DNA of 32,000 bases, taken from the NCBI GenBank assembly GCA_016196885.1, contig JACPWU010000050.1:38794-70793 (forward strand), written 5' to 3'. How positions within the stretch are numbered: the first letter of the stretch is position 1; each line of letters begins with the position of its first letter. Of the stretch, positions 5,739 to 32,000 are shown piece after piece. The translations under genes were made by a program, and so were the position numbers. Origin of the DNA: Chlamydiota bacterium. Its GTDB lineage: Bacteria; Auribacterota; JACPWU01. The notes under the pieces are model-generated. The model was given only the letters and a program-made list of their open reading frames with translations. It had not been told where the DNA came from and did not search any database.

Positions 5739-5743
5739 AAAAT

Positions 5744-5814
5744 TCCCAATACCAAATTTCCAATGACAATTTAATTTCCAATGATCCAATCTCCAATTGG
5801 ACATTTGTCATTGG
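5744..5814. repeat. CCAATGA/CCAATTGGACATT heptamer-hairpin repeat (ftsI/murE spacer)
   Basis: CCAATGACAA ... TTGTCATTGG forms a 10-bp stem around the palindrome TCCAATTGGA. It shares the core with 8310-8420 and 11529-11645. It overlaps the ftsI stop codon. Confidence 0.7.
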
Positions 5815-7529
5815 TTAGTATTTTCTTCCTCTCTCGCCAACATTCGATCGGGCACAACCTCTAAGTAACGCATCAATGCACTCGCCAACTCTTGAAAAGC
5901 AGGGGCCGCCACCGTCCCTCCATAATGAAAATGCTGAGGCTCATTGACGACCACCAAAATCACCGCCTCTGGATGATCTGCCGGCAAAAAACCAATAAAA
6001 GAAGAAACAAATTTAGAATGAGAATATCCACCCGCCGGATCCGCTTTCTGAGCCGTTCCTGTTTTCCCCGCCACAGAATATCCGTCTACACGGGCATTAT
6101 AACCTGTCCCCTGGGAGCTCACGACCCCTTTCATCGCCTCCACAATTTGATCCACTGTTTCTCGAGAAATCACGCGATCCTGTTTCTCTGTTAGATTTTC
6201 TAAAATCACATTCCCATCTCGATCCACAATTTTCCGAATCAATCGAGGTTTCACCAAAACGCCCCCATTCGCCAATGCACAATAAGCCCTCACCAACTGC
6301 ATGGCTGTCACCGTCATCTCCTGCCCCATCGGAATCATATAAGGCGAGAGCTTAGACCATTTGGAAAGAGGATGCAAGAGTCCCGATACTTCTCCCGGTA
6401 AATCCACTCCCGTCATACGCCCAAATCCAAATTTACTCATATAGTTATAAAGATTTTTCGCACCCAATCTGCATCCTATTTTGGCCATTCCAATGTTGCT
6501 GGACTTCGAAACGATCTCATGCACCGCCAGGGTCCCATAAGGATGAGCATCATGAAGGACATGCCCTCCCCCAATCGAAAAGGAGCCCTTCTCACAATAG
6601 AACCGATCCGAAAGTTTCACCACCCCCTCTTCCAAAGCGGCAGACACAATCAAAGGCTTCAAGGTGGACCCCGGCTCAAAAAAATCCGTCAGGGCTCGGT
6701 CGCGCCGCACATCCAGAGATGTCTTCGACGCTTGATTCACATCATAAGAAGGACGATTGACAAAGGCCAAAATATCTCCGCTTTTAGGATTCATCACAAC
6801 GAGGCTGGCGCTTTGAGGATTAAATTGCTCCATGACTTTATCCAATTGAGCCTCCGCCAATGTCTGAATGGTGGCATCAATCGTCAAAATCAAATCCAAA
6901 CCGTCTTGAGGTTCTACCTCAAAGCGCCTGGATGTCAACACCTCTCGGCCCGTAGCATCCTTCTCCGTCAGTCGCCATCCAGGTTTGCCCCTCAAGTAAC
7001 GATCAAACTTCAGTTCCAGCCCCTCCAAACCCTGATCATCTAATCCCGTAAAACCCAACACATGACCCAACAATTTCCCGCCTGGATAAACACGCCTGGA
7101 CTCCTCCAGCGTATAAATCCCAGGTAATTTGAGGGCAATCACCTCTGACGCTTTATCTGGCTCAATCTTGCGCTTAATCCAAACAAAATGTTTTTCTTTA
7201 GAGAAGCGTTTTAAAATTATTTTTCTATCTACATTCAGGGCCTTTGCCAAAACCTTGGCCACCTTTTCAGGGTCCTTGACTTGGGCAGGAACTGCATAAA
7301 AAGATTTCACAGGAACGCTGATCGCTAAATCCCGACCCTGGCAATCCACAATTTTCCCTCTTTTGGGAGGAAGTGGAATCGTCAAACGCTGCTGTTGGGA
7401 GGCCTTCTCCACAAAAAAATCGTGCCACAGCACCTGAAGAAAAAAAAGGCGAATCACCAAAATCGTCAAGGCACCCAAAAGAAAAATAGCCACTAGTAAA
7501 GAACGAAACTTATGCGTAAATTTGACCAT
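5808..7529 (-). CDS. ftsI: Penicillin-binding protein 3-like transpeptidase FtsI
   Basis: N-terminal TM helix, then STLKP (SxxK), SSN and KTGT motifs. AAGGAG lies 8 nt upstream of ATG 7529. dcw context. Confidence 0.9.
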   Translation of the reverse strand: MVKFTHKFRSLLVAIFLLGALTILVIRLFFLQVLWHDFFVEKASQQQRLTIPLPPKRGKIVDCQGRDLAISVPVKSFYAVPAQVKDPEKVAKVLAKALNVDRKIILKRFSKEKHFVWIKRKIEPDKASEVIALKLPGIYTLEESRRVYPGGKLLGHVLGFTGLDDQGLEGLELKFDRYLRGKPGWRLTEKDATGREVLTSRRFEVEPQDGLDLILTIDATIQTLAEAQLDKVMEQFNPQSASLVVMNPKSGDILAFVNRPSYDVNQASKTSLDVRRDRALTDFFEPGSTLKPLIVSAALEEGVVKLSDRFYCEKGSFSIGGGHVLHDAHPYGTLAVHEIVSKSSNIGMAKIGCRLGAKNLYNYMSKFGFGRMTGVDLPGEVSGLLHPLSKWSKLSPYMIPMGQEMTVTAMQLVRAYCALANGGVLVKPRLIRKIVDRDGNVILENLTEKQDRVISRETVDQIVEAMKGVVSSQGTGYNARVDGYSVAGKTGTAQKADPAGGYSHSKFVSSFIGFLPADHPEAVILVVVNEPQHFHYGGTVAAPAFQELASALMRYLEVVPDRMLAREEENTNQ

Positions 7530-9958: not shown

Positions 9959-10021
9959 ACCACAATACACCACTTTTCACCACTTTGATATCAGTTTAAG
10001 GCTCTTTTCCCCCACTGTCAA
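9959..10021 (-). promoter_or_regulatory. Putative Pmra sigma-70 promoter with three MraZ-box direct repeats
   Basis: On the minus strand, TTGACA (10021-10016) is followed by a 17-nt spacer and TAAACT (9998-9993). Then GTGGT occurs three times at exact 10-bp spacing (plus-strand ACCAC at 9979-9983, 9969-9973 and 9959-9963). Confidence 0.6.
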
Positions 10022-10028
10022 CGAAAAT

Positions 10029-10122
10029 AGCGTTCAGCATTCAGCGTTCAGCGTTCAGCGTTCAGCGTTCAGAAAAAAACAAGCTCCTTTAAACTGTCGC
10101 TATACGCTGAACGCTGTACGCT
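10029..10122. repeat. Heptamer array hairpin between rnpB and the mraZ promoter
   Basis: AGCGTTC/AGCATTC occurs 6 times in tandem at 10029-10072. The complementary arm CTGTCGC TATACGC TGAACGC TGTACGC lies at 10094-10122. Confidence 0.8.
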
Positions 10123-10168
10123 CTATTTTATTGGGGTATTTTTCAGCTAGATTGAGTATATTATTAAT

Positions 10169-10561
10169 GAAGGGAGAGCCGGATGATCGCTCCGACGTAA
10201 CGTCGGAGAGGAAAGTCCGAACTCCACAGGGTGAAGTGACTTCTCGTAGAAGTCGGTCGAGCGCTTTTTAAATAAAGTTCAAGACCAGGGAAAGTGCCAC
10301 AGAGACAATACTACTTCGATGCAAATCGAAGGAAAGGTGAAAAGAGAAGGGATGTTCGAAAGAGCTACTCTTCTCTCCGATGAGTACAAGCTCTATCGGA
10401 GTGGAAAACCCCACTTGGAGCGAGATCAAATAAAAGACCGTGAGGTACCCGCCTCCCGTTGACTGAATCGACAGGTCTTGGGTAAGATCGCATAAGAGAA
10501 ATGATCATCACGGGCCGTCTAAAAACGGCCTGACAGAATTCGGCTTACAGGCTCTTCCTTC
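10169..10561 (+). ncRNA. rnpB: RNase P RNA, bacterial type A
   Basis: GAGAGGAAAGTCCGAAC (CR-I / P4 5' strand), ACAGAATTCGGCTTACAG (CR-V / P4 3' strand) and AGGGAAAGTGCCACAGAGA. The P1 stem GAAGGGAGAGCC pairs with GGCTCTTCCTTC. Confidence 0.85.
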
Positions 10562-10567
10562 ATTTTT

Positions 10568-10858
10568 TCACCCACCCAACCTTCCATCCCTGAAGAATTG
10601 AAGCGTGTGAATGGTAAAAATTGAGATGCCAATGGAAATTCTTAAAAGCCTGAAAAATTGAATTCGAAAGGTATCTTGTTTGGAACGAAGCATGCCCGCC
10701 ACTCCATCACTGACCAAAAGAACTCCAGCCGCAAATGCCCAATAATCCACAACCACAGGCCCAGATTTTGAAAAAAACGTATGCCACGTAGAGAAACAAC
10801 TCAACGCCGCGATTAAAAATGCAAAGGCCAAAAGATATTTCTTTTCGGCAAAGTCCAT
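10568..10858 (-). CDS. Small hypothetical membrane protein (about 3 TM helices)
   Basis: Hydrophobic ORF. ATG 10858 is preceded by GAAGGAG at 7 nt. The track start at 10909 would overlap the upstream gene by 41 nt. Confidence 0.5.
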   Translation of the reverse strand: MDFAEKKYLLAFAFLIAALSCFSTWHTFFSKSGPVVVDYWAFAAGVLLVSDGVAGMLRSKQDTFRIQFFRLLRISIGISIFTIHTLQFFRDGRLGG

Positions 10859-10868
10859 AAGCACTCCT

Positions 10869-11525
10869 TCAAAATTTTTCATTCCATTCAGGGGATAAAT
10901 ATTTTTCATGCAAAAAGGGCAAGGCTTCCAAAGAGCAAATCATAGAATCTGAATCCTGAAAATTCAAATCAAAAACTTTTGAAAAGGCTTGATGAATTTG
11001 ATAAATTAAATCGTTTCTCTCAATCCCATTTTCTAAATGGATAGATCCTTGATGAAGTAAAAATCCCCTTCTTCTGCGCTGAGCCCCTCCTGCTATTTTT
11101 CGAGATTCTACCACAAGATCTCCCTTCACAGGCGTTTGAAAACAAAAATTTCCCTCTTGACTCTTGCCTTCATAAACTTCAGCGGATACGCCTAAGGAAA
11201 CAAACGCATTTTTCAAAACCCCATGAATCCAGCCATAACTCTCTTGGATATTTTTTAAGAAAGGAACCGATTCCAAAGCAAGGACGAGAGAAAAAGTTAA
11301 ATCATCTCCATGGGGAACAATCCCTCCACCCGTCCAGCGACGCACAAAAGGACGATCTAAAGAGAGATCCCCATTTATCTTTTGAAAATAACCAATGGAA
11401 TAACTAAAGGTTTCCCAATCATAAAAACGCAAAGCAGGAATCTCAGCCAGTAAAAGGCCCTCGTCAACAGCCATGTTCCAGGCAGGATCACGGGGAGGGG
11501 TTTCAAAAACAATTAATTTATACAT
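10869..11525 (-). CDS. Lipoate-protein ligase / octanoyltransferase family protein (BPL_LplA_LipB fold)
   Basis: FVRRWTGGGIVPHGDDLTFS and RKIAGGAQRRRRGFLLHQGSI resemble the LplA/LipM catalytic region. It is adjacent to gcvH, whose product is lipoylated. Start moved to ATG 11525 (MYKLIVFE) because the upstream codons are repeat sequence. Confidence 0.7.
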   Translation of the reverse strand: MYKLIVFETPPRDPAWNMAVDEGLLLAEIPALRFYDWETFSYSIGYFQKINGDLSLDRPFVRRWTGGGIVPHGDDLTFSLVLALESVPFLKNIQESYGWIHGVLKNAFVSLGVSAEVYEGKSQEGNFCFQTPVKGDLVVESRKIAGGAQRRRRGFLLHQGSIHLENGIERNDLIYQIHQAFSKVFDLNFQDSDSMICSLEALPFLHEKYLSPEWNEKF

Positions 11526-11528
11526 AAT

Positions 11529-11645
11529 CTCAAATTTCCAATGACCCATTCCCAATGTCAAATGAATGACCCATGACTCAATATCCAATTGGACATTCGA
11601 TCATTGGAAATTAACTTGTCATTGGCAATTGAGAATTGGAAATGA
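11529..11645. repeat. CCAATGA/CCAATTGGACATT heptamer-hairpin repeat (gcvPB/ligase spacer)
   Basis: Shares CCAATGACCCATT, AATGTCAAATGAATG, CAATTGGACATT and TCATTGGAAATT with 8310-8420. Confidence 0.75.
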
Positions 11646-11651
11646 TCAAAG

Positions 11652-13088
11652 TTACCAAACCAGTCTTAATTCTTTGGCCGCCGCAACTTCATCCAATCGC
11701 CGAACAGGTGTTTCGGTTGGAGCTTGATGAAGTTTTTCGGGAGCGTTTTGGGCCTCCCGGGCAATCTGAACCATCAAATCTGCGTAAGCATCTAAGGTCT
11801 CTCGGGTTTCCGTCTCAGTCGGTTCTATCATCATGGCCTCCTCCACAATCAAAGGAAAATAAACGGTCGGAGGGTGCATTCCAAAATCTAAAAGTCTTTT
11901 CGCAATATCAAGTGCACGAACACCATGCTTCACATAAGGCTTGGCCGAGACCACGAATTCATGCATAAAGGGACCTGGGAAAGGAGTTTCGAAAATTTTC
12001 TTCAATTTCGAAAAAAGATAATTGGCATTGAGAACAGCCGCTTGTCCTGTTTTCTCAAGTCCTTCCTTACCTAAAGCCTTGATATACGTATAGGCTCGAA
12101 CCAAAATCCCCACATTGCCGTAAAAAGACCGTACGCGACCTACAGAATCGGGGAGATTTTCATTCAAAAAATATTCTCCCTCTTTTTTTTCAATCACAGG
12201 TGTGGGTAAAAATTTTGCCAAATGCGCTTTCACCCCGACAGGCCCAGCACCGGGACCTCCACCCCCATGGGGGGTCGAGAAGGTTTTATGCAAATTCAAA
12301 TGAACCATGTCAAATCCCATATCTCCGGGCCTGGCCAAACCCAAGAGTGGATTCAAATTTGCTCCATCATAATAAAGGAGCGCCCCTATTTTATGCATGT
12401 CTTTGGCAACGCGAAGAATATCCCTCTCAAAAAGGCCCAGCGTATTAGGATTGGTCAGCATGAGACAAGCCACATCCGGATTCAGAACCTTTTCCAGGGC
12501 CTCGGAATCAATATGGCCCTTGGCATCCGAAGGAACAGAGACCACGGTGAAGCCCGCCAAATGGGCACTGGAAGGATTGGTCCCGTGTGCAGAATCAGGG
12601 ACAATCACCTGGGTTCTCTTTTGGCCCAACGAATCAAAATAGGCCCGCACGATGAGCATGCCTAAAAATTCACCCTGCGCCCCGGCACAGGACTGGAGAC
12701 AAAATCGGTCCATCCCTGAAATCTCAGAGAGGAGTTTTTCCAATTCATAAAGCAAAGACAAAATCCCTTGAGAAAGATGAGCGGGTTGAAGAGGATGCAC
12801 CTTTGCAAACCCTGATAAAGAGGCAGCTACCTCATTCATTTTCGGATTGTATTTCATGGAACAGGAGCCCAGTGGATAAAAATTGGAATCTATCGAAAAA
12901 TTCAAACGCGACAAATGCGTATAATGTCTGACCACCTCGAGTTCACTTAAAGAGGGAAGGCCATTTTCACTTTCCCTTAAAAATTCTTGGGGGATCACTT
13001 GAATACTTTGAAAAGGGCCTGTGTCTTCCCCGGGCAATGAATAGGCACGACGACCTTCCTTACTTAATTCAAAAAGAGTTTTTTCCAT
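11652..13088 (-). CDS. gcvPB: Glycine dehydrogenase (decarboxylating) subunit 2
   Basis: 478 aa with the NLHKTFSTPHGGGGPG pyridoxal-phosphate lysine motif. Overlaps the gcvPA stop by 20 nt. Confidence 0.95.
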   Translation of the reverse strand: MEKTLFELSKEGRRAYSLPGEDTGPFQSIQVIPQEFLRESENGLPSLSELEVVRHYTHLSRLNFSIDSNFYPLGSCSMKYNPKMNEVAASLSGFAKVHPLQPAHLSQGILSLLYELEKLLSEISGMDRFCLQSCAGAQGEFLGMLIVRAYFDSLGQKRTQVIVPDSAHGTNPSSAHLAGFTVVSVPSDAKGHIDSEALEKVLNPDVACLMLTNPNTLGLFERDILRVAKDMHKIGALLYYDGANLNPLLGLARPGDMGFDMVHLNLHKTFSTPHGGGGPGAGPVGVKAHLAKFLPTPVIEKKEGEYFLNENLPDSVGRVRSFYGNVGILVRAYTYIKALGKEGLEKTGQAAVLNANYLFSKLKKIFETPFPGPFMHEFVVSAKPYVKHGVRALDIAKRLLDFGMHPPTVYFPLIVEEAMMIEPTETETRETLDAYADLMVQIAREAQNAPEKLHQAPTETPVRRLDEVAAAKELRLVW

Positions 13089-17656: not shown

Positions 17657-19291
17657 CTACGCAGAGATATAATCCAAGAATCCCTTGAGCTTCTTAGATC
17701 GAATGGGATGGCGCATCTTCTTCAAGGCTTTTGCCTCGATCTGACGTACACGCTCGCGCGTGACATTAAAAACCTTGCCCACCTCTTCCAGGGTTCTCGG
17801 AGAACCATCGCCCAATCCAAAGCGAAGCCTCAAGACCCGCTTTTCGCGAGGGGTTAAAGTCTCAAGTACATTTTCAATCTGCTCCTTCAAGAGGCTATAC
17901 CCCGTTGCCTCCGCCGGATTGCGAATGGTTTTATCTTCAATGAAATCCCCGAATTGGCTGTCCTCTCCATCCCCAATCGGCGTCTGAAGAGAAATGGGAT
18001 GCTGAGAAATTTTCAGAATGCCGCGTACCTTTTCCACAGGAAGATTCATCTCCTCGGAAATTTCTTCCGGCGTCGGCTCTTTCCCATATTCTTGCACAAG
18101 CTTTTTCGAGACACGTACCAATTTATTGATGGTCTCAATCATGTGAACTGGGATGCGAATGGTTCTGGCCTGATCCGCAATCGAACGCGTGATGGCTTGA
18201 CGAATCCACCACGTGGCGTAAGTGCTGAATTTATAGCCACGCTTGTATTCAAATTTATCCACAGCCTTCATCAAGCCCAGATTTCCTTCTTGAATCAGAT
18301 CCAAAAAGGAAAGCCCGCGATTCGTGTATTTTTTGGCAATGCTGATCACGAGCCGAAGATTGGCCTCGACCATGTCATCTTTGGCGGATCGCATGCGATT
18401 CGTCCAATGCTCTAAGGTCGCAGACTGCTGTTTAAATTCGTCCAGCGTAACGCCTAAAGTTTCTTCAATACGCTTTAATTTTCGGCGTTCATTCTGAACC
18501 CTCGCTCTTCGAAGTTTGGAAGACTCTCCCGGACGAGACAGCTCAATCTCCCGCTCTGCCGCAACAATTTTATCTCTCAAAGAGAGAACCTTATCTACCA
18601 ATTCATCAATGACCTCTTGGCGAAAATAAAACTTCCTGAGCAGTGAATTGAGTTTCCTTCTTTTCTCCTCAAGCTTTTTCAATTTTCGATTGCGAATCCC
18701 TTTGGAGATCCTCTTGCGAACCTCTTTCACGAGGACGAAAACTTCTTTCTCCAAGGTCTCTGCATGATGACACACCCTAGAAAGACCTGAGATATAGCGC
18801 TCTTTATTCGTCACAAATTTATCAATCACGACACGGTCAAACCGCTCCTTGCCGGCCAAAAGCCTTCGAGCAATGATCACACTTTCTTTGGGAATATTTC
18901 CGAAGGTAAAAAGAAAGGAACGGATTTGCTGATCGGCTTCCTCAATTCTCTTGGCCAAATCTACCTCTTGTTCTCGGGTGAGAAGAGGGACTTTGCCCAT
19001 CTGCTTGAGATACATGCGAACAGGGTCGTCCAGCACCTCCGTTTTGGAGGATTCATCCTCTTCCTTCGTCTCTTCCTTGGCCTTCCATTCCTCCTCTGCC
19101 TTTTTCCGTTTGGCATCATCTACAATCTGAACTTCCATGCTTCTTAAAAGAATAAGCATGGACTCAATTTCATCTGGAGAAATCACATTTTCAGGAAGGA
19201 CCTCATTGATATCATCATAGGTCAAGACGCCCTTTTCACCAGCCATTTTAACCAGCTGCTTAATTTTGGTATTTCTCTCTTCTTTGGTCAT
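17657..19291 (-). CDS. rpoD: Primary RNA polymerase sigma factor RpoD
   Basis: [11 protein letters not shown] (region 1.2), [11 protein letters not shown] and [33 protein letters not shown] (region 2), [20 protein letters not shown] (region 4.2). ATG 19291 (MTKEERN) is preferred. ATG 19321 is possible. Confidence 0.95.
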
Positions 19292-19369
19292 GTCTCCAAC
19301 TCCCGCCCTACCCTCTCTCATGACTAAGACACATAAGAAATGAAAAAGATTAAAAGAAAAGTGATGATA

Positions 19370-21772: not shown

Positions 21773-22906
21773 TTATTTCAACCACGGAAGTTGGCAAAAT
21801 TTCATAAAGGGTGTTATTCTTGCCCTATATTTTGCAATTTCGATATCCTTTGTTCCCAAATGAACTTGATAAAATTTTGGAACCGAAGAACGTTCGGAAA
21901 AATAAGATATATGAGGGCTTAGAGAGGATTCACCTGTCTTACATTCAACCGCAAAAAGAGGCTTACGATTTTTGATCACGACAAAATCAATTTCCCTTTT
22001 TTGGGCATCACGAATAAACTGAAGATCCATTTCATCTCCTTCGGTATCTTCAATAAAATGACACATTTTGAGCAAATGGGATGCCACAAGGTTTTCAAAT
22101 CGGGTGCTCAGGTCTTCACATTGGGACCAATCCCACAGGTAAAGTTTTTTCTCCTTTTTTGCCGTGCGCAATCGAGGGAGCCCAAAGGGAGCTATTCGAT
22201 AACAATAATAAATATTTTCTAGGATAAGAATCCAACGGTCCACTGTTTCAAAAGAGACTTGTAAATCTTGTTTCAAATTATTGAGTGAGAGAATGGACCC
22301 CACACGTTCAGGGAGAATATGAATGAGGAGATCCAATTGTGAAACCTCTTTAACTTGTTCCAAGCTTATCAAATCTTCTTGAATCACACGCATCAGGCGC
22401 TCCCTCTGCCATCTTTTATGGTGACGAGTGTTCGCCTTTAAAAAGGGTTCTGGGAAACCTCCGAAGGTCAGCAGTTGATCTAGACATTTTTGATTTGGCT
22501 TCGAATCAAGCTCGGAAAGACTTAAAGGATGTAAACGATAATAGTGATATCTGCCCTGCAAAGAATCTCCTCCACGACGGTAGTAATCGAGTCTGGCTGA
22601 GCCTGTGATGAGAAACCGTTTCGTAGATTTGTGCTGATCGTAGAAACCTTTCACGAGATTTCGCCACCCCCTGTATTTGTGAATTTCATCCAGGACAATT
22701 AATTTTTGATCCGCAGGCAATTCCCCTTTAAGAAGAGACCTTTTGACAGTCGGCACATCCCAGTTGAGGTAGGCAGGATGGGATTCATTGGCATTTCCCA
22801 AAAGATGAAAAGCCACCGTGGTCTTACCTGTTTGCCGAGGGCCACCGATAAAAACCATTTTTTCATTTAAATCTTTTTCAATCGCTGACTCGAGGTAACG
22901 CTGCAT
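21773..22906 (-). CDS. Stand-alone AAA+ ATPase with C-terminal PD-(D/E)xK-like domain (AAA_14 + DUF4143 / COG1373-like)
   Basis: Walker A GGPRQTGKTT and Walker B LIVLDEIH. The C-terminal REIDFVVIKNRKPLFAVECKTGE resembles a restriction-endonuclease-fold motif. Confidence 0.7.
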   Translation of the reverse strand: MQRYLESAIEKDLNEKMVFIGGPRQTGKTTVAFHLLGNANESHPAYLNWDVPTVKRSLLKGELPADQKLIVLDEIHKYRGWRNLVKGFYDQHKSTKRFLITGSARLDYYRRGGDSLQGRYHYYRLHPLSLSELDSKPNQKCLDQLLTFGGFPEPFLKANTRHHKRWQRERLMRVIQEDLISLEQVKEVSQLDLLIHILPERVGSILSLNNLKQDLQVSFETVDRWILILENIYYCYRIAPFGLPRLRTAKKEKKLYLWDWSQCEDLSTRFENLVASHLLKMCHFIEDTEGDEMDLQFIRDAQKREIDFVVIKNRKPLFAVECKTGESSLSPHISYFSERSSVPKFYQVHLGTKDIEIAKYRARITPFMKFCQLPWLK

Positions 22907-25170: not shown

Positions 25171-25287
25171 TTGAGGGTGAAAGAGGATCCCCTCTGAGAG
25201 GATGGTTTTATGCTGTTTTTTGATGATTCTCTCAATAGCGCCGGGGGGAAGCCGAACCTATTCTTCAGAGGAGGAATAGGTTTTTTT

Positions 25288-25875
25288 ATGGCAAAAAAAT
25301 TGAACTCCAAAAAGTTTTCCTTCCTCGATGGCGAAATGCGTTTTTACAAACGCGGCTTCACCGTGATTGAAATGCTGGTCGTCATTTCTGTCATCGCTAT
25401 TTTGGCAAGCATCATTCTTCCGGCTTTGAACAGCGCCCAAAAAAAAGCCAAAATCACTAAAACTCAAAGTATGATTGATTCCATCACCACAGCCTTCAAA
25501 CAATATCGAACCGACTTTGGAGCCTATCCCTTAGACGATACCATTCCCAATGTTTCAGGAGGATCCCCCACCTCAGCCGAGTGCATTTATTATTATTCGG
25601 CGGCCAGTTTCGTCGCAGGAGAAAATGCGGATGAGATCACAGCTGGACCTTACATGGAATACCGCCAAAAGGATGAAGGGACTTCGACCCAAAGCGCAGA
25701 CATGGATGGGGATGGTGCCAGCGATGATTCAATTTTTCCAGTAGTGGATGCCTGGGGAAATTCGCTCATTTATATTGAGCCCGGAACCCATAATACGAAC
25801 TCTTTCGATATATATTCTTATGGACCCGACGGAGCCGATGACAGTGGAGGCGACGATGACATTGTTAATTGGTGA
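25288..25875 (+). CDS. GspG/PulG-like major pseudopilin
   Basis: Prepilin motif KRG/FTVIEMLVVISVIAILASIILP, then NSAQKKAKITKTQSMIDSI and a C-terminal DAWGNSLIY...YSYGPDGADDSGGDDDIVNW typical of T2SS G proteins. The start is uncertain. ATG 25288 has AGGAGGA at -12, ATG 25210 has GAGAGGA at -8, and ATG 25336 would give the canonical short leader MRFYKRG. Confidence 0.8.
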   Translation: MAKKLNSKKFSFLDGEMRFYKRGFTVIEMLVVISVIAILASIILPALNSAQKKAKITKTQSMIDSITTAFKQYRTDFGAYPLDDTIPNVSGGSPTSAECIYYYSAASFVAGENADEITAGPYMEYRQKDEGTSTQSADMDGDGASDDSIFPVVDAWGNSLIYIEPGTHNTNSFDIYSYGPDGADDSGGDDDIVNW

Positions 25876-26602
25876 CAAAAAGAAAGCGATCAGAAAAAAA
25901 ATAACTCCCCCAAGCCCTAACTCCCCAGGCCCCTCTTTGAAAAAAAGAGGGGGGACCCTCCCTTTCAGTTTAATCCCACAGGGACTAGAAAATCTTGAGG
26001 GGAGTTGGAGGGGTTATGAGAGTGATCTATTTTCTTTTGAAACTTCTAAAAAAAAATCATCCGGGCTAACCCTGATCGAACTTTTGCTCGTCATTTCTAT
26101 CATGGGCCTTCTTGTTTTTTTAGCGCTCCCAACGCTTTCAAAGTTTGGAAGTAACATACGACTCAAAAGTGCATCAGAACAGGTATCCAGTCTCTTTCGG
26201 ATGGCTCGGCTCTTGGCTACCACAAAAAATATCACGACTTCTGTTTTTATTTACACCCGAGAGGCGGAGCTTCCTAATCATATTTTCATTACAGGTGCAG
26301 GAGGACAATTGGAAAAGGTTTGGGTGGCTCCCTCTTTGATTGAAATTCCGGATGTTTCAGGCAACATCGGTCTTCAAACCGCCTCCTTCACTTCTTTCGG
26401 AACCACGAGCGCCATCTCGCTTCATCTTATTCAAAAGGGCACACTCATCAATGGAAATCCTTATGATGCGAGCGGGACATACGGAAGCTTGAGCAAAGCC
26501 GAACGGGTCAAATGTCAAACCGTCACCACAGACAATAACACCGGCCGGGCCAGAGTTTACGCTTATGGGAGGAATGCGCCATGGGCAAGTACGGATCTTT
26601 AA
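25856..26602 (+). CDS. GspH/FimT-like minor pseudopilin with an unusually long (~70 aa) leader
   Basis: SSG/LTLIELLLVISIMGLLVFLALP, then SASEQVSSLFRMARLLA. There is no ATG/GTG/TTG in frame between the repeat and the cleavage motif. ATG 25856 has GGAGG at -5. The track start at 25748 lies deep inside the upstream gene. Confidence 0.65.
   Translation: MTLLIGDKKKAIRKKITPPSPNSPGPSLKKRGGTLPFSLIPQGLENLEGSWRGYESDLFSFETSKKKSSGLTLIELLLVISIMGLLVFLALPTLSKFGSNIRLKSASEQVSSLFRMARLLATTKNITTSVFIYTREAELPNHIFITGAGGQLEKVWVAPSLIEIPDVSGNIGLQTASFTSFGTTSAISLHLIQKGTLINGNPYDASGTYGSLSKAERVKCQTVTTDNNTGRARVYAYGRNAPWASTDL
25902..26016. mobile_element. 115-nt variant of the TAAC...GTTA palindromic element inside the GspH-like leader
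   Basis: The left end TAACTCCCCCAAGCCC and right end GAGGGGAGTTGGAGGGGTTA match the 72-nt element. The interior differs and has a CCCCTCTT-TGAAAAAA-AGAGGGG hairpin. Confidence 0.6.
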
Positions 26603-27114
26603 AAGCAGGGTCATGGATCATGGGTCATGGGTTAACAAAAAAAGAAAGTTTCATGTTTCATGTTTCATGTTTCATGTTACTCACAACTCACGACTCACGA
26701 CTCACGACTAAAAAAGGCTTTACCCTTTTCGAAATCGTCATCGCCTTAGGAATCCTGGCCATTGGTATCTTAGGAATTCTGGCGCTTTTTCCTGTGGGGC
26801 TGGATGCTCAAAAAAGGGCGATGGATTATGGCAACATGGCCAATTTGGCAGAATGGAAAATGGCTGACATTTATTATCGAAGCCATCTCTCAGGATTTGA
26901 TAACAGTTTGACCGCGGCTCTAGATTATCCAACCAGTGGACCGGATCCTGCGCCTTTCACACAAAATTCAAAATATTTATGGCATTATTCGGTTTCTCAA
27001 CCTTTTGTGAGCACCCTTCCTGATTTTTACCGCGTGGATTTAGAAATTTATTCGGTCGAAGATACGTCAAACTCCATCGAAAAGGTGGTGAATTATTTTG
27101 AAAAACCAAACTAA
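26581..27114 (+). CDS. GspI/PilV-like minor pseudopilin
   Basis: KKG/FTLFEIVIALGILAIGILGILALFPVGL. ATG 26581 is preceded by GGGAGGA at 8 nt. Internal in-frame ATGs at 26653 and 26674 lie inside a heptamer array. Confidence 0.7.
   Translation: MGKYGSLKAGSWIMGHGLTKKESFMFHVSCFMLLTTHDSRLTTKKGFTLFEIVIALGILAIGILGILALFPVGLDAQKRAMDYGNMANLAEWKMADIYYRSHLSGFDNSLTAALDYPTSGPDPAPFTQNSKYLWHYSVSQPFVSTLPDFYRVDLEIYSVEDTSNSIEKVVNYFEKPN
26608..26710. repeat. Three consecutive heptamer arrays inside the GspI-like leader
   Basis: GGGTCAT GGATCAT GGGTCAT, then GTTTCAT x4 perfect (26649-26676), then GTTACTC ACAACTC ACGACTC ACGACTC ACGACTA in the same 7-nt register. Confidence 0.85.
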
Positions 27115-27913
27115 AATAACTGTCGTGCGTCGTGGGCCATCTATCATCCATCATCCATCATCTACTCATGGCTTTTCCATGATCGAACTTCTCGCCGCTA
27201 TGTCTGTTTTTATCATCATGGCTTTTGCCCTGTATGTCGTTTTCGATCGCGTTAATCTCGTGTGGAAACATGGAGAGTACAAGGCAGATCAATATCAGAA
27301 TGCCCGAAATGTTTTGGACATGATGGCTCGAGAATTAACTTCCGCTGTGATTGCTGTCGGAGGACCTAATGCCTTTTCAAACAATGTTTATGGCCCTGCC
27401 TATTTATGGAGTGTTGATGGCCAGGGAGGAAGTGATTACGACCAAGATCAAATCTTTTTCATTTTTGCCAGGGACAACGCACTTCGTGAAGTAGGTTACT
27501 ACATCAACGACCAAACCACAGGTGTGGGAAACACAACGGCCGCAGATGATGTTTTGATGCGGGCCTACACCAGTGATACAAACACCGATTTTGACATCAC
27601 CTCGACTGGCACTTCTTTTGGTTCTTACGACGACACAGGTTTTAAAATCACGGATCTCAACTTTAATTTTATTTATCAGAACGGTGGCAATTATACCCGC
27701 ACCGATGTCTGGGACAGTCGAATGGATTATACCAGCGCTTCAAGCACTTCTACGACCGTTGATGATGGAAAATTGCCTGATTTTATCGAGATTTCGATTC
27801 GCGTCGTAGACCAAGAAATTTTGGAAAAAGATGGGATCTCTCCGCCTCAAAAAGATCGCAAGGAATTTAAAATCATGGTCCCGATGAATCAGAGGAGTTT
27901 TAGAAATGAATAG
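27098..27913 (+). CDS. GspJ/PulJ-like minor pseudopilin
   Basis: HG/FSMIELLAAMSVFIIMAFALYVVF, then QYQNARNVLDMMARELTSA. TTG start at 27098 with AAGGTGG upstream. Overlaps the previous stop by 17 nt. Confidence 0.7.
   Translation: MKNQTKITVVRRGPSIIHHPSSTHGFSMIELLAAMSVFIIMAFALYVVFDRVNLVWKHGEYKADQYQNARNVLDMMARELTSAVIAVGGPNAFSNNVYGPAYLWSVDGQGGSDYDQDQIFFIFARDNALREVGYYINDQTTGVGNTTAADDVLMRAYTSDTNTDFDITSTGTSFGSYDDTGFKITDLNFNFIYQNGGNYTRTDVWDSRMDYTSASSTSTTVDDGKLPDFIEISIRVVDQEILEKDGISPPQKDRKEFKIMVPMNQRSFRNE
27120..27170. repeat. Heptamer array inside the GspJ-like leader
   Basis: CTGTCGT GCGTCGT GGGCCAT CTATCAT CCATCAT CCATCAT CTACTCA, translated as TVVRRGPSIIHHPSSTH. Confidence 0.7.
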
Positions 27914-30911
27914 AATCAATACTCAAAATGAATTAACTCCCCCAACCCCTCTTAACCTAAGAGGGGAGAACCTCTCCCCTTATTTAAGGGGAGTTGGAGG
28001 GGTTACATCTTTTCAAACAGGCGCCGCCCTCATCTTAGCTCTCGGCATCCTCGCTCTCATCACGGTGCTCGCCATTTCTTTCGCGACGCTCATGCGCTTT
28101 GAAGAAAAGAGTGCGCGGCAATCGCTTTATCTCATTGAAGCACGGCAAATGGCGGCCGCGGGACTCCAATACGCGATTGCCATTTTGGAAAAGGATTTAA
28201 CGGAGGATGAGGGCGGAACCACTTCCACCTCGTTAGGCGGTCCGTCGCTGTATGATTCCCTCGATGAAGAATGGGCAACGCTTTTTACGGGGAGTGACAC
28301 TGATTTAGATGGGGACGGCAACAACGATTCCAAATGGATTTACATTCATGAAGATGCTGACGGGACGGGGCCTGTGATTGGACGATATGCAGTTTTGATT
28401 CAAGACGAGGCAGGCAAAGTAAACTTGAATGTGGCTGGGAATGGCTCTCAAAACGAGGGATGGTCCCCTTATGAACTCGACATGTCGGCCCTCCCTGACA
28501 TTGGCTCCACAAAAGCCGATGCCATTCTGGATTATCGCAGGGGAACAGATATTGTGAATGGGGCAGATGCCTCTGAACTTCCTCTTGAGGGAGATGACAA
28601 TGACAATAACATTTCTTTAAGCGCAGATGGGATTGACAACAATGCCACTGCGGGGGCTGACGAAATCAACGAAGGGGCCAATGATCCAACCGAGTTTGAC
28701 CCTGAGATCCCTTATGAGGATGACCGCCCCTTTGCGTCATTGGAGGAACTTTCAAAAGTGAATGGCATTGGCTCGGATACCATTAACAACATCAGAGATG
28801 AGGCAACCGTCAATAGTCTTGACACAAATCAATATTGGAATGGCTCTTCCTGGCTCAGAAAAATCAATTTAAACCATCTTCTTTCTACATCCCAACTTTA
28901 CAGTCTGACTCTCACCACCACGAATGAAAAATATCGCCTTTCGGCGAACATGATAGACTACGCGGATCGAGATATTTATCCGACTTTCACCACGACGACG
29001 GTGAGTGCACCTGACGCAAGCAACTCCTACATGGGCGTGGAAGGCCTGCAAATCAATGAGATCATGAATAATCCTTCTTCCACCTCTATCGCCCGCACAG
29101 AGGCCCAAAGCACCTTGTCAGGTCAGGGGGCGTGGAATCAACAGAGCGGCTATGACGAGGGCAATAGCACAGATGATATAGGTCAATGGAGCTGGCCCTG
29201 GGACAATGGCCCTTATTGGATTTCGGTAGACGAAACCAATGGTTCCAATATCACGATTGATGGTCAGGCGATCAGCGATCCTTCCAGTTTCACACGCGTG
29301 ATTATTTCTGGAGAAGCGATTGATCTTTCCATCACCGATGCCCAAGAGTCCACTCCCCCCCAACAGTTGGCGACCTTCACACAGATCAACATTATGAGTG
29401 GAAAATATATCGAGATCATTAACATCAGCCAAAGAGCGATCACGATTGATTGCACGGGAAGCGATGCCTGGAAACTGGCCCTGGGAGGCACGGTCAATTT
29501 TCCGACGCTCAATCGAGATGGTTTACCAGGAACCGTAAGCGGAGCAACTTATTCTCTTTCTTTAGACGCGACAGGATCAACTGCGAGTGACATCACCCTC
29601 TCAGGTCTTCAATCCAGTACCAGCCCCCCAACCTATGATTATCTCATCATCGCAGACAGCGCTCACGCCCTGGATGAACTCTACGGCGGTGACGGAGACG
29701 GAGCCTGGAGTGGTTCTGGATCAGAACCGGGTCATGTGATTACGAATGGAGACTTGGCAAATGAATTAGCTTCTTCAGGAGTGGATTTGGCTCTGGTTAA
29801 TTCTAACGATGAAGTGATCGCTTATGTTCCCGCAAGTGCCACGAATTATCACATTGCGGCCTACGGAGGCCCCAGTACGGCTGGACAAAGTATGTCACGA
29901 GTTTCTGCGGTGGATGAAACAGGCAGTTGGAACAGTTGGACCTATTCTCCAGGTACCGACAATGACAACGCGAACAACGATATCACTTCTTCAGGTGCTC
30001 GCTATTGGTCCATCAAAGACCGCCCTTACTCAACCATCGGAGAATTGAGCGATGTCTTTCTTGGAACATCCCATAACGGAACCTACAATATCGAAAGCAG
30101 CAGTGCCAGCAGCTTCTTCGACAAAATCACCATCGCAGCCAAAAGATTAGAAGCTGAAGACGCCGACAGCATTCTCTGGTCGAGTTGGGAATCTGCGAGT
30201 GACAATGACGGCACCACCCGTTACATCGCAGGAAGCAACACAGCCAGCGCCACCTGGACTTGGACATTTGATATCACAGATAGCAGTGATATCACAAATC
30301 CCTTCAGGCTTCGCGAAAATACAGGCTTTGACGTTCTGGTTTATAGCCAATTCGCAAGGGATTTCCAATCTCCGAGTGGTGAAGACCGCTTTGTGAGGCC
30401 AAACCACAGCGTCGCCGTTGACTCCGAGACTGTCACCAGCAATCGCATCAGTATCCCCATCATAGGAAACGGAAGCGACACTCCCAAACTGGATTATATT
30501 GTCCTAACCCCAGAGCCCTATACTTATGGACGAATCAACATCAACACGGCTTCTCAAGATGCACTCATGAGTTTACCGGGGATCGCGTCTTCACTATCGA
30601 GCAACATTATTTCTTATCGCGAAACCGATCCCTTCAATCAAATTCAGGAAATCACGAGTGCTTCAAGTGTCGGAGAATCTACTTTCGAACCCATTTCCAA
30701 TCTCATCACGGTCCGAAGCGATGTGTATCGCATCATCATACGTTCCGAGCGCATCATGGACATTGACGGCGACGGGATTGAAAACGATCCCAGTGATTCA
30801 TCCGTTTCTACGGCCAGTCTTGACACCATCGTAGACCGCAATCCGACTCTGCGATTTCCGGGAACCTCCAACCGCTATCGGATTGAGTTTCAGAAATACA
30901 GATATGAATAG
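27906..30911 (+). CDS. Giant (1001 aa) GspK-like minor pseudopilin with large inserted modules
   Basis: GAGGAG lies 9 nt upstream of ATG 27906. It has an N-terminal hydrophobic segment GAALILALGILALITVLAISFA. GspK-like hallmarks are GRYAVLIQDEAGKVNLNVAG and the C-terminal GRININTASQDALMSLPGIASSLSSNIISYRE...VRSDVYRIIIRSE. About 550 aa of insert lies between them. Confidence 0.75.
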   Translation: MNRINTQNELTPPTPLNLRGENLSPYLRGVGGVTSFQTGAALILALGILALITVLAISFATLMRFEEKSARQSLYLIEARQMAAAGLQYAIAILEKDLTEDEGGTTSTSLGGPSLYDSLDEEWATLFTGSDTDLDGDGNNDSKWIYIHEDADGTGPVIGRYAVLIQDEAGKVNLNVAGNGSQNEGWSPYELDMSALPDIGSTKADAILDYRRGTDIVNGADASELPLEGDDNDNNISLSADGIDNNATAGADEINEGANDPTEFDPEIPYEDDRPFASLEELSKVNGIGSDTINNIRDEATVNSLDTNQYWNGSSWLRKINLNHLLSTSQLYSLTLTTTNEKYRLSANMIDYADRDIYPTFTTTTVSAPDASNSYMGVEGLQINEIMNNPSSTSIARTEAQSTLSGQGAWNQQSGYDEGNSTDDIGQWSWPWDNGPYWISVDETNGSNITIDGQAISDPSSFTRVIISGEAIDLSITDAQESTPPQQLATFTQINIMSGKYIEIINISQRAITIDCTGSDAWKLALGGTVNFPTLNRDGLPGTVSGATYSLSLDATGSTASDITLSGLQSSTSPPTYDYLIIADSAHALDELYGGDGDGAWSGSGSEPGHVITNGDLANELASSGVDLALVNSNDEVIAYVPASATNYHIAAYGGPSTAGQSMSRVSAVDETGSWNSWTYSPGTDNDNANNDITSSGARYWSIKDRPYSTIGELSDVFLGTSHNGTYNIESSSASSFFDKITIAAKRLEAEDADSILWSSWESASDNDGTTRYIAGSNTASATWTWTFDITDSSDITNPFRLRENTGFDVLVYSQFARDFQSPSGEDRFVRPNHSVAVDSETVTSNRISIPIIGNGSDTPKLDYIVLTPEPYTYGRININTASQDALMSLPGIASSLSSNIISYRETDPFNQIQEITSASSVGESTFEPISNLITVRSDVYRIIIRSERIMDIDGDGIENDPSDSSVSTASLDTIVDRNPTLRFPGTSNRYRIEFQKYRYE
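27934..28005. mobile_element. 72-nt palindromic element, copy 2, in frame in the GspK-like N-terminus
   Basis: TAACTCCCCCAACCCCTCTTAACCTAAGAGGGGAGAACCTCTCCCCTTATTTAAGGGGAGTTGGAGGGGTTA. It is translated as LTPPTPLNLRGENLSPYLRGVGGV, in the same phase as in murD. Confidence 0.8.
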
Positions 30912-30965: not shown

Positions 30966-32000
30966 CTATATTTCCGCATCGGACAATATTTCATCTTTAC
31001 TCAATGCCTTTCGATAAATTCTCATCTCATCCAGGATTCCATAAAACGCATACGTGGTCGAAGTCCCCCCGTTGCCGAGATAAAGGGAAAGAGGGGTCAC
31101 ATCCAATTCTTTTGATTGCGACTTGCTCGCAGCAAGTGTGCCATTCATATATAAGCTCATCGTCCCCGTTTTGGAATCATACACACCCGCCACATGAGAC
31201 CAGACGTTTCCTTTCATAGAGGCGCTACAAGTAATCCATGAACCTCCCTTATGAGTGGTATCTGTAAAGAAGGACACATTGCCTTTATAAATATAGATCC
31301 CCCAAGTCCCTCCACTCCTTTGCAGGATATACTGTTGGTTCTTTGCAGCCATATTCGTAGGGTAAACCCAGGCTTCAACGGTCAGGGCGTCTTCAGCATC
31401 CAACGTTGCAGAATCAGGTACACAGACATAACCCGATCCGTTAAACGAAAGCCCATTTGCGCTGTATCCCGCTACCGATGTCACACCACTCAATTTTCCA
31501 TTATTCTCACAGTGAGATGGGTCCGTCGCTGTCCCGTCATCAAAATTGTAATGCAACACCTCATCAGGGATTCCTTTCTCCATATCACCTTGAATCATCT
31601 CTTGGCTCAAGGCCATATTGTAGATTCTAAGCTCGTCTATTCGGCCATTGTATGCATAGGTCGGACCAGTTCCGTAGGAACCGACATAAAGATTATCAAG
31701 GGTCGAGCCCAAATGGCCCTTCTGGATTTTAGAACTTTTCAAGGTGCCATCCACATAAAGAACCATGACCCCAGCATTTTTATCATAGGTACCTGCAACA
31801 TGGGTCCAGCGATTGGCTTGAATCGAACTTGATAAAACGAGACGGCTGCCCCCATCGTCTTTGGTATCCGTGTAGAAGTAGAGCTTGCTGCTGGCCATAT
31901 AAAATCCCCAGGTCTCGCTTGATTTCTGCATAAGATATTGACGGGTGCTTGAACTGACACTGGATGGATTAATCCATGCCTCCAGGGTGACTGCGCTTGT
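30966..32000 (-). CDS. Multi-LamG (Laminin_G_3 / concanavalin-A-like lectin) repeat protein; N-terminus beyond the right edge
   Basis: Two full ~175-aa repeats plus part of a third. Each has the pattern LHYNFDDG..., ALTVEAWVYP / AVTLEAWINP, W(S/T)HVAG(V/T)YD, LY(M/V)(N/D)GTL and D(E)(M/L)RIY(R/N)(K/M)ALS. I checked that the frame stays open from 31931 to 32000. Confidence 0.75.
   Translation of the reverse strand, partial: TSAVTLEAWINPSSVSSSTRQYLMQKSSETWGFYMASSKLYFYTDTKDDGGSRLVLSSSIQANRWTHVAGTYDKNAGVMVLYVDGTLKSSKIQKGHLGSTLDNLYVGSYGTGPTYAYNGRIDELRIYNMALSQEMIQGDMEKGIPDEVLHYNFDDGTATDPSHCENNGKLSGVTSVAGYSANGLSFNGSGYVCVPDSATLDAEDALTVEAWVYPTNMAAKNQQYILQRSGGTWGIYIYKGNVSFFTDTTHKGGSWITCSASMKGNVWSHVAGVYDSKTGTMSLYMNGTLAASKSQSKELDVTPLSLYLGNGGTSTTYAFYGILDEMRIYRKALSKDEILSDAEI

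Follow-up and report, generated by a model that had tools for sequence, protein, structure and literature searches.

A gene at 27906..30911 on the forward strand of contig JACPWU010000050.1 (positions counted within the 32,000-nucleotide stretch that was analysed, called the window below) encodes a homologue of the pilin GspK. At 1001 residues (aa), it is three times longer than the 327 aa GspK of Escherichia coli K-12. Very probably, its pilin sheet is interrupted by an alpha-domain, and some 570 residues sit between the two double helix-hairpin-helix units, (HhH)2, of that alpha-domain. These hold a lamin-tail domain (LTD), a beta-sandwich nested within it, and a second beta-sandwich. The larger claim is that this is an apical subunit of a type IV filament (the GspK/PilX/PilK class) which acts as a built-in tip adhesin. 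Taken whole, that claim is judged to have somewhat better than even chances.

The open reading frame was listed in a first-pass annotation made from the sequence by itself, and it is indeed present, with a translation of 1001 aa. The motifs quoted there as GspK hallmarks are all where they were said to be: QDEAGKVNLNVAG at residues 166-178, ININTAS at 877-883 and RSDVYRIIIRSE at 937-948. The same goes for those quoted from the insert, which are LQINEIM (381-387), GKYIEIINISQ (499-509), KRLEAEDADSILW (746-758) and KLDYIVLTPE (861-870). Upstream of the hydrophobic helix there is no start codon other than the ATG at 27906, and GAGGAG lies 5' of this ATG. Opposite-strand reading frames within 27906-30911 are short and are treated as spurious. 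An identical protein has been deposited as 'MAG: helix-hairpin-helix domain-containing protein [Chlamydiae bacterium]', where MAG stands for metagenome-assembled genome. The gene and its parts, all on the forward strand, are as follows; pLDDT is the per-residue confidence of the AlphaFold2 (AF2) model.

27906..30911, +: GspK/PilX-class apical minor pilin gene, 1001 aa, stop codon within the coordinates
27906..28022, +: leader of 39 residues with FQTG at its end; prepilin peptidase is predicted to cut before AALILALG; Leu at +5
28023..28214, +: pilin alpha1 helix, residues 40-103 (AF2 helix 37-103, pLDDT 77-93); N-terminal matches to NCBIfam GspK and Verru_Chthon A
28215..28481, +: first half of the pilin beta-sheet, residues 104-192; strands 144-148 and 157-167; contains DxDxDG loop 1 and QDEAGKVNLN
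28296-28331, +: DxDxDG loop 1, residues 131-142, in the pilin core before the first strand
28482..28817, +: (HhH)2 unit 1, residues 193-304; Pfam HHH 9e-10 at 276-297; split by an acidic loop
28551-28694, +: the acidic loop splitting unit 1, residues 216-263; 48 residues, disordered, pLDDT <50
28818..29021, +: alpha-domain connector, residues 305-372; a beta-hairpin, KINLNHL, and a helix with NxIDYxDRD
29022..29966, +: LTD, immunoglobulin-like, residues 373-687; strand A LQINEIM, resumption at KYIEIINIS, end at SW..W...PGTDN
29082..29399, +: nested beta-sandwich, residues 393-498; 106 aa between LTD strands A and B; W.W.WDNG.Y motif
30135..30521, +: second beta-sandwich, residues 744-872; jelly-roll like that of carbohydrate-binding modules (CBM) 6 and 35; first strand LEAED, last KLDYIVLTP
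30522..30719, +: (HhH)2 unit 2, residues 873-938, ComEA-like; Pfam HHH_3 1.1e-19, T2SSK 23.6 bits
30720..30908, +: the three C-terminal pilin-sheet strands, residues 939-1001 (940-951, 965-977, 992-1000); contains DxDxDG loop 2
30759-30794, +: DxDxDG loop 2, residues 952-963, in the pilin core between the first two C-terminal strands

The protein is a GspK homologue by sequence, fold and gene order, so this part of the first-pass annotation is borne out. The NCBIfam model for type II secretion system (T2SS) GspK, NF037980, matches at E 3.1e-19, where residues 37-302 correspond to model positions 1-206 of 307 and a second stretch also matches. The score is 69.7 bits for the native protein and 71.5 bits (E 8e-20) once the insert is deleted, against an equivalog cutoff of 130, so the protein is not a member of that equivalog. 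Pfam T2SSK reaches its 23.6 bits at residues 877-936, with a gathering threshold of 24.2. With the insert deleted, a profile of the core can be aligned to E. coli K-12 GspK over nearly the full length of both (hhalign E 1.6e-4), which places QDEAGKVNLN opposite RDAQHCFNLN.

The fold agrees. A full-length AlphaFold2 model built from 28 homologues (pLDDT 79.7, predicted TM score 0.78) shows, in order, an N-terminal helix of 67 residues, a pair of strands, a region of helices, an all-beta stretch at 361-875, an HhH unit and three C-terminal strands. Searched with Foldseek against the PDB, this model finds XcpX first (6utu_C at E 7.4e-4, then 9a1f_T and 5vtm_X), and GspK of enterotoxigenic E. coli (3ci0_K) as well. 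These XcpX/GspK chains have E values from 7e-4 to 6e-2 and probabilities of 0.92-1.0.

Relative to canonical GspK, the extra residues (303-875) are inserted within the alpha-domain. The first-pass annotation had described GspK hallmarks split by about 550 aa. The split is real, but its size is nearer 573 aa, given that the NF037980 match breaks off at 302 and the HHH_3 match resumes around 876.

The N-terminus is that of an apical pilin. It has a class III prepilin signal, FQTG|AALILALGILAL, followed by the hydrophobic alpha1, with Leu at position +5 and no Glu there. All four pilins encoded directly upstream do have Glu+5, reading their signals as G|F(T/S)xxE. PilK/GspK homologues are invariably without this residue, and their position is taken as apical (PMC13533445). 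The AF2 model leaves the leader disordered. At 39 residues it is also unusually long, and its LTPPTPL..RG..SP stretch is conserved in one homologue (P0004). At the other end of the protein, the model has the protein provide its own terminal strand in cis, like T2SS GspK does; the role of this strand in GspK has been described (PMC13533445).

Compared with the T2SS GspK/XcpX proteins (PDB 3CI0, 5VTM, 6UTU; NF037980; PF03934, PF21687), the likenesses are many. Both have a signal without Glu+5, a long alpha1, a pilin sheet interrupted by an HhH-bearing alpha-domain, three C-terminal strands and acidic, calcium-type loops in the core. Both are encoded by the last gene after G/H/I/J-type pilins. 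The differences are the length, the beta-sandwich modules between the halves of the alpha-domain, an extra acidic loop that splits the first (HhH)2 unit, and the sub-cutoff score. Genes for GspC, GspL or GspM are not found in the neighbourhood, and in relatives the linkage is to PilT, PilM and PilN.

The two (HhH)2 units match each other (193-304 against the C-terminal HHH_3 unit, hhalign 97.7%, E 2e-12). The first-pass annotation had counted two extra HhH-like segments as part of the insert. They belong instead to the GspK alpha-domain, which has two ComEA-like (HhH)2 units. The acidic loop within unit 1 has the family consensus GDDNxNN..DGIDNDGDGxxDE..EG.D.P.EFDPE.PY.DD. It is highly conserved in the family, degenerate here (DGIDNNATAGADE), and missing from two Auribacterota homologues in the alignment. 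The connector carries a near-invariant NxIDYxDRD motif, of which N323, D351 and D354 are invariant in the family, and N348 and D356 nearly so. In homologue P0023, a Pfam T2SSK_1st match stands directly before the LTD.

Such units invite another explanation. The protein might sit on the tip of a competence pilus as a receptor for DNA, with the ComEA-like units, perhaps together with the LTD, binding extracellular DNA like Thermus ComZ does. Unit 2 does match ComEA and EEPD1 in the PDB in addition to HHH_3, and the ComEA HhH model TIGR00426 (cutoff 53.1) gives the native protein 58.4 bits and the core construct 62.4. There is a second such unit, LTDs occur in extracellular nucleases such as ExeM (PMC6085458), and the Joint Genome Institute (JGI) names some homologues 'DNA uptake protein ComE-like'.

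Against this, HhH-like units are normal in a GspK alpha-domain, and Pfam T2SSK covers the same stretch as HHH_3. The GIG hairpin motifs are degenerate (PGIA, SVGE), and the LTD of ExeM is dispensable for DNA degradation (PMC6085458). Most directly, the mature protein is extremely acidic (net charge -88, isoelectric point 4.07), and unit 2 has two Arg/Lys against six Asp/Glu, for a net of -4. Because of this charge and the two basic residues in the HHH_3 unit, a DNA-receptor role is considered very improbable.

The two DxDxDG loops are real. Overlapping matches to D.[DN].[DN]G number 3, with 0.17 expected in shuffled sequences (P(>=2)=0.014), and most close relatives conserve the two. The first-pass annotation had them in the insert, but they flank it in the pilin core. 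Canonical GspK has two calcium sites, and XcpX a third (PMC6211770). The loops probably stabilise the tip by binding calcium, and the assumption that such calcium-type loops are part of what is new here is corrected.

Three independent lines identify residues 373-687 as an LTD that a 106-residue module interrupts. The native 1001-aa protein has no match to Pfam LTD (PF00932, gathering threshold 34.3 bits), but homologues aligned over more than 90% of the length exceed that threshold in the same region: P0015 with 42 bits (model positions 18-107), P0014 with 38.4 and P0023 with 39.2. The second line is removal of the interruption in silico. Without residues 392-496, the 1001-aa protein does match LTD, at 22.4 bits and E 1.6e-4 over model positions 7-103, and the P0015 score rises to 55.7 bits after excision, with the model covered from position 7.

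The third line is the fold. Foldseek matches the immunoglobulin (Ig) domain of lamin A/C (1ifr, E 0.013, probability 0.99, target-normalised TM 0.54; also 6rpr, 3gef and 6ghd). The query here was the full-length model, and the matching query range is inferred rather than reported. An LTD with an internal insert of about 100 aa had been proposed beforehand from the sequence, and the interruption is exactly where it was placed, between strand A (LQINEIM) and strand B (KYIEIIN).

The nested module is all-beta (pLDDT ~88-92). It aligns with residues 735-872 in a profile comparison (hhalign 86%, E 4.9e-6), and on this level the two beta-sandwiches are related. Among close relatives the nested module is the most variable segment, with a mean identity of 31% compared to 41-64% elsewhere.

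The second sandwich was modelled on its own as residues 688-880, with a pLDDT of 70-88 over the domain. Foldseek then finds the xylan-binding module MiXBM (7ehg, E 3.7e-4, probability 1.0, TM 0.59), and CBM6 structures 2cdo and 2cdp at E 4-8e-4. Among the best 50 matches listed, the majority, including the top 16, are CBM6, CBM35, CBM36, CBM86 or MiXBM, with TM scores of 0.50-0.59. The conserved LEAE(D) first strand and the last strand with D865 bear some resemblance to the usual calcium-site positions of CBM6 and CBM35.

As for known domains, then, the predicted folds of 744-872 and 373-687 resemble CBM6/CBM35/CBM36/CBM86 and the lamin A/C Ig-fold or bacterial LTD respectively, and the LTD is also found by the sequence profiles of homologues. 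Unlike members of CBM6 (PF03422) and CBM35 (PF16990), the CBM-like modules here match no CBM family by sequence and have no catalytic partner domain. Unlike a typical PF00932 domain, the LTD has another domain nested in it and long additional loops, and takes up ~315 residues compared to a model of 109 positions.

The 1001-aa gene is the last of five. Directly upstream, on the same strand, are four prepilin-type genes, with a T2SSG domain in the product of the first alone:

25288..25875, +: GspG-like major (pseudo)pilin; signal YKRG|FTVIE with Glu+5; start codon uncertain (the reading frame opens at 25210)
25856..26602, +: minor pilin in the GspH position; signal SSG|LTLIE; start codon uncertain (the reading frame opens at 25748)
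26581..27114, +: minor pilin in the GspI/PilV position; signal KKG|FTLFE; start codon uncertain
27098..27913, +: minor pilin in the GspJ/PilW position; signal THG|FSMIE; overlaps the K-like gene by 8 nucleotides

The reading frames of these four (25210-27913) run well 5' of the signal peptides and overlap mutually, which leaves their start codons uncertain. The first product matches Pfam T2SSG (9.5e-14) and N_methyl, and NCBIfam gspG at 9e-23, under its cutoff. The other three match Pfam N_methyl at 3e-5, 2.8e-5 and 4e-4 in gene order. Their NCBIfam matches are Verru_Chthon D and GspH for the first of them (top matches, N-terminal and under cutoff), weak ones to Verru_Chthon B, PilV and GspI for the second, and weak ones to Verru_Chthon C and GspJ for the third.

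The Verru_Chthon cassette A-D (TIGR02600, TIGR02598, TIGR02599, TIGR02596) occurs in the Planctomycetes-Verrucomicrobia-Chlamydiae (PVC) group, and likewise consists of three small prepilin-type proteins and one giant. Its proteins D, B, C and A are the best or near-best NCBIfam matches for the H-, I-, J- and K-position proteins of the window, respectively. This likeness is however confined to the N-terminal ~60 residues. Membership of Verru_Chthon A is ruled out: TIGR02600, with its 1296 positions, scores 34.6 bits over the N-terminal 62 residues against a cutoff of 332, and the larger relatives that were scored fail this model too. Judged by these profile scores, the 1001-aa family is a parallel to the Verru_Chthon cassette and not the same family.

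The family is widespread. There are 39 homologues in a set of 5.8 billion proteins, and 261 at E<=1e-30 in a library of 50%-identity representatives, about 30 of which align end to end with lengths of 937-1083 aa. GTDB species genomes contain 64 loci. The architecture recurs in about 60 species-level genomes, often next to pilus or secretion machinery that includes PilT. Full-length relatives are mainly from Candidatus Omnitrophota, with others in Auribacterota, UBP3, Aerophobetes, rumen MAGs and MAGs labelled Planctomycetia.

The window itself has no gene for an ATPase, platform protein or secretin of such machinery in its 32 kb. Within 8-10 kb on either side of the relatives, tblastn finds GspF/PilC at 18 loci, secretins at 14, PilB/GspE-type ATPases at 11 and PilM/N at 17. 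The order of pilins followed by the K-like gene is also that of two related loci, L001 and L003. L003 is an Auribacterota cluster in which PilT scores above its cutoff (446 against 319 bits), and where PilB/GspE, GspF and a PilS/R-like pair lie upstream of the pilins and the K-like gene.

In a further locus, L004 (12863-18815), the K-like gene adjoins genes for a secretin and a PilM-like protein; for these two, the best or near-best matches are the Akkermansia pilus-cluster families Amuc_1098 and Amuc_1101, respectively. This locus links the family to PVC-type pilus clusters.

The close relative at L001 has two giant K-like paralogues, at 4347-7340 and 10001-12898 (997 and 965 aa), which flank G-H-I-J pilins and are 48% identical to each other. 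L002 has the same arrangement; the window has the downstream copy only. Such paired paralogues may be alternative tips.

Several points weigh against a surface adhesin that binds glycans. The CBM likeness is one of fold, at 10-18% identity, a root-mean-square deviation of 4-6 A and TM scores of 0.5-0.6, and jelly-rolls are also found in proteins that do not bind sugars. Pfam has no family at E<=10 for either sandwich or for the three homologue segments searched, and a profile of 12 family members over the second sandwich finds no PDB sequence at E<=10. The CBM6/35 resemblance that the first-pass annotation saw in 744-872 thus survives as a fold, and not as family membership. No ligand-binding residues could be identified in the modules, and the function of bacterial LTDs is unknown (PMC6085458). 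The H, I and J identities of the upstream pilins come from gene order and weak N-terminal matches. Finally, given a GspG-like major pilin and no machinery genes in the window, this could be a short endopilus that stays in the periplasm and never reaches the surface.

This last point amounts to a rival explanation. The protein would then be the tip of a true T2SS endopilus confined to the periplasm and the secretin vestibule, and its modules would engage cargo, the secretin or peptidoglycan instead of anything outside. The Pfam T2SSG match of the major pilin fits this, as does the fact that the best family model for the tip protein is T2SS GspK, and so does the cis terminal strand. Some relatives also adjoin a GspD-like secretin and GspF. 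But the GspK, GspG, GspH, GspI and GspJ matches are all under the NCBIfam equivalog cutoffs, and no GspC, GspL or GspM gene is near the K-like gene in any locus. The window has no gene of these three types, and a tblastn search with E. coli GspL gave 0 matches in the window and in the relatives' loci. In the closest lineage, a retraction ATPase (PilT) and a PilS/R-like pair belong to the cluster, and other relatives have PilM/N and Amuc_1098/1101-type components of type IV pili. Nor is any T2SS GspK known to have binding-type modules. An endopilus tip is therefore considered unlikely, if worth keeping in mind.

It could also be that the inserted modules have no specific ligand, and serve as a spacer, a shield, or a folding-delay device that times the assembly of the tip complex. 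The lack of identifiable ligand-binding residues and of any CBM family matched by sequence would suit such bulk. Yet across phyla, at 25-50% identity, the same order of three modules is retained from one end to the other, and Trp-rich motifs are conserved in the family (W.W.WDNG.Y, the invariant W758, and W.W.F). The side-by-side diverged paralogues of one relative fit diversified specificity better than inert bulk. Modules that merely fill space are thus rated a little less probable still than an endopilus.

Target recognition by pili and pseudopili is often set by the tip, through either a separate PilY1/PilC adhesin or a small pilin with a C-terminal module. A tip adhesin remains the most likely function here because the protein is of an apical class, its terminal strand is in cis, the pilin operon has no PilY1-type gene, and three binding-type sandwiches have been inserted.

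By analogy, the 1001-aa product would be processed at FQTG|A and, lacking Glu+5, would be seated at the very top of the filament. A tip complex with the I- and J-position pilins, plus the H-position one, may prime polymerisation of the GspG-like major pilin. The three beta-sandwich modules would then be displayed at the distal end, facing away from the filament. There they could form a built-in adhesin, taking the place of PilY1/PilC, CpaL or modular lectin pilins. Its ligand would most plausibly be a polysaccharide or other glycan, which is a best guess from the predicted fold. Since related lineages have PilT in the cluster, binding could be coupled to retraction.

A bolder version has a class of self-contained tip adhesins, so far undescribed, that spans phyla and serves retractile type IV pili in Omnitrophota and Auribacterota as well as in uncultivated lineages near them. 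In these, a glycan-binding LTD/CBM array set into the GspK alpha-domain would attach the cell to prey, host or particles, the LTD would be the scaffold for the nested binding module, and pairs of paralogues would swap tips to change specificity. As a whole, this is doubtful.

Modular tip pilins are not new. Modular pilins present von Willebrand factor A (vWA) or lectin modules at pilus tips (PMC8179133, PMC9934059). In Streptococcus sanguinis, PilB carries vWA, and PilC an Ig domain and a concanavalin A (ConA)-like lectin (Raynaud et al. 2021, PMC8179133; PMC9934059). Like the protein described here, these are pilins with grafted generic binding-type domains, probably at the tip. Their modules are C-terminal, joined to a small pilin by a linker, whereas here the graft is inside the alpha-domain of a GspK-class protein and one module is nested.

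Thermus ComZ, with its beta-solenoid (PMC6561018), and Caulobacter CpaL (PMC13533445) are apical pilins with a large inserted domain, no separate PilY1/PilC and a cis C-terminal strand. PilK homologues in PilY1-less systems carry large insertions (PMC13533445). The insert of ComZ and CpaL is however between the sheet and the terminal strand, compared to a mid-sheet alpha-domain here, and consists of a beta-solenoid or other adhesin domain instead of LTD and CBM-like sandwiches. ComZ moreover binds DNA, which is unlikely here.

No paper that pairs GspK with a lamin-tail domain was found in a literature search. Dataset S1 of PMC8179133 does list pilin plus LTD architectures, uncommented, for seven proteins (IPR012902-IPR001322 in 6, and with PilX_N in 1). 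What is new is the graft site inside the GspK alpha-domain, the module nested in the LTD, and the breadth of the family.

The rest of the window is ordinary chromosome, with dcw genes, the glycine-cleavage system, rpoD, dnaG, rsmE and dnaJ. An AAA_14/DUF4143 ATPase gene (21773-22906, reverse strand) lies between dnaG and rsmE. Convergent with the K-like gene, at 30966-32000 on the reverse strand, is a gene for a protein with repeated Laminin_G_3 (ConA-like lectin) domains. Its frame is open to the edge of the window, which truncates the gene, and the full protein exceeds the 321-aa reading frame listed. Of the related loci, L008 alone has a similar gene.

The label 'Chlamydiae bacterium', under which NCBI has the source MAG, is doubtful. 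The RpoD protein (17657-19321, reverse strand) is closest to two proteins from 'Chlamydiae bacterium' MAGs, with 100% and 83% identity. Next among the named matches come Candidatus Theseobacter exili and one protein with just the label 'Chlamydiota bacterium' (66% each), then Aureabacteria/Auribacterota (60-63%) and, after those, Verrucomicrobia. Among the best 120 RpoD matches, none carries the name of a classical chlamydial genus or family. On these sequence matches, the chlamydial label and any argument from obligate intracellular life are both questionable. The suggestion of host attachment in the first-pass annotation leaned on a chlamydial identity that the relatives of RpoD do not support, and that assumption too is corrected.

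What has been found is a capping subunit that was expanded from within, by nesting at four levels: the pilin sheet contains the alpha-domain, which contains the LTD, which contains a beta-sandwich. The lineages that bear the family are mostly uncultivated, and for some of them a life attached to other cells is suspected. Should the modules bind glycans, they would be a marker for attachment specificity in these lineages, would give bacterial lamin-tail domains a testable function, and would be an example of a GspK alpha-domain that tolerates very large grafts. Should a class of tip adhesins for retractile pili turn out to be true, this would be the first defined role for bacterial lamin-tail domains.

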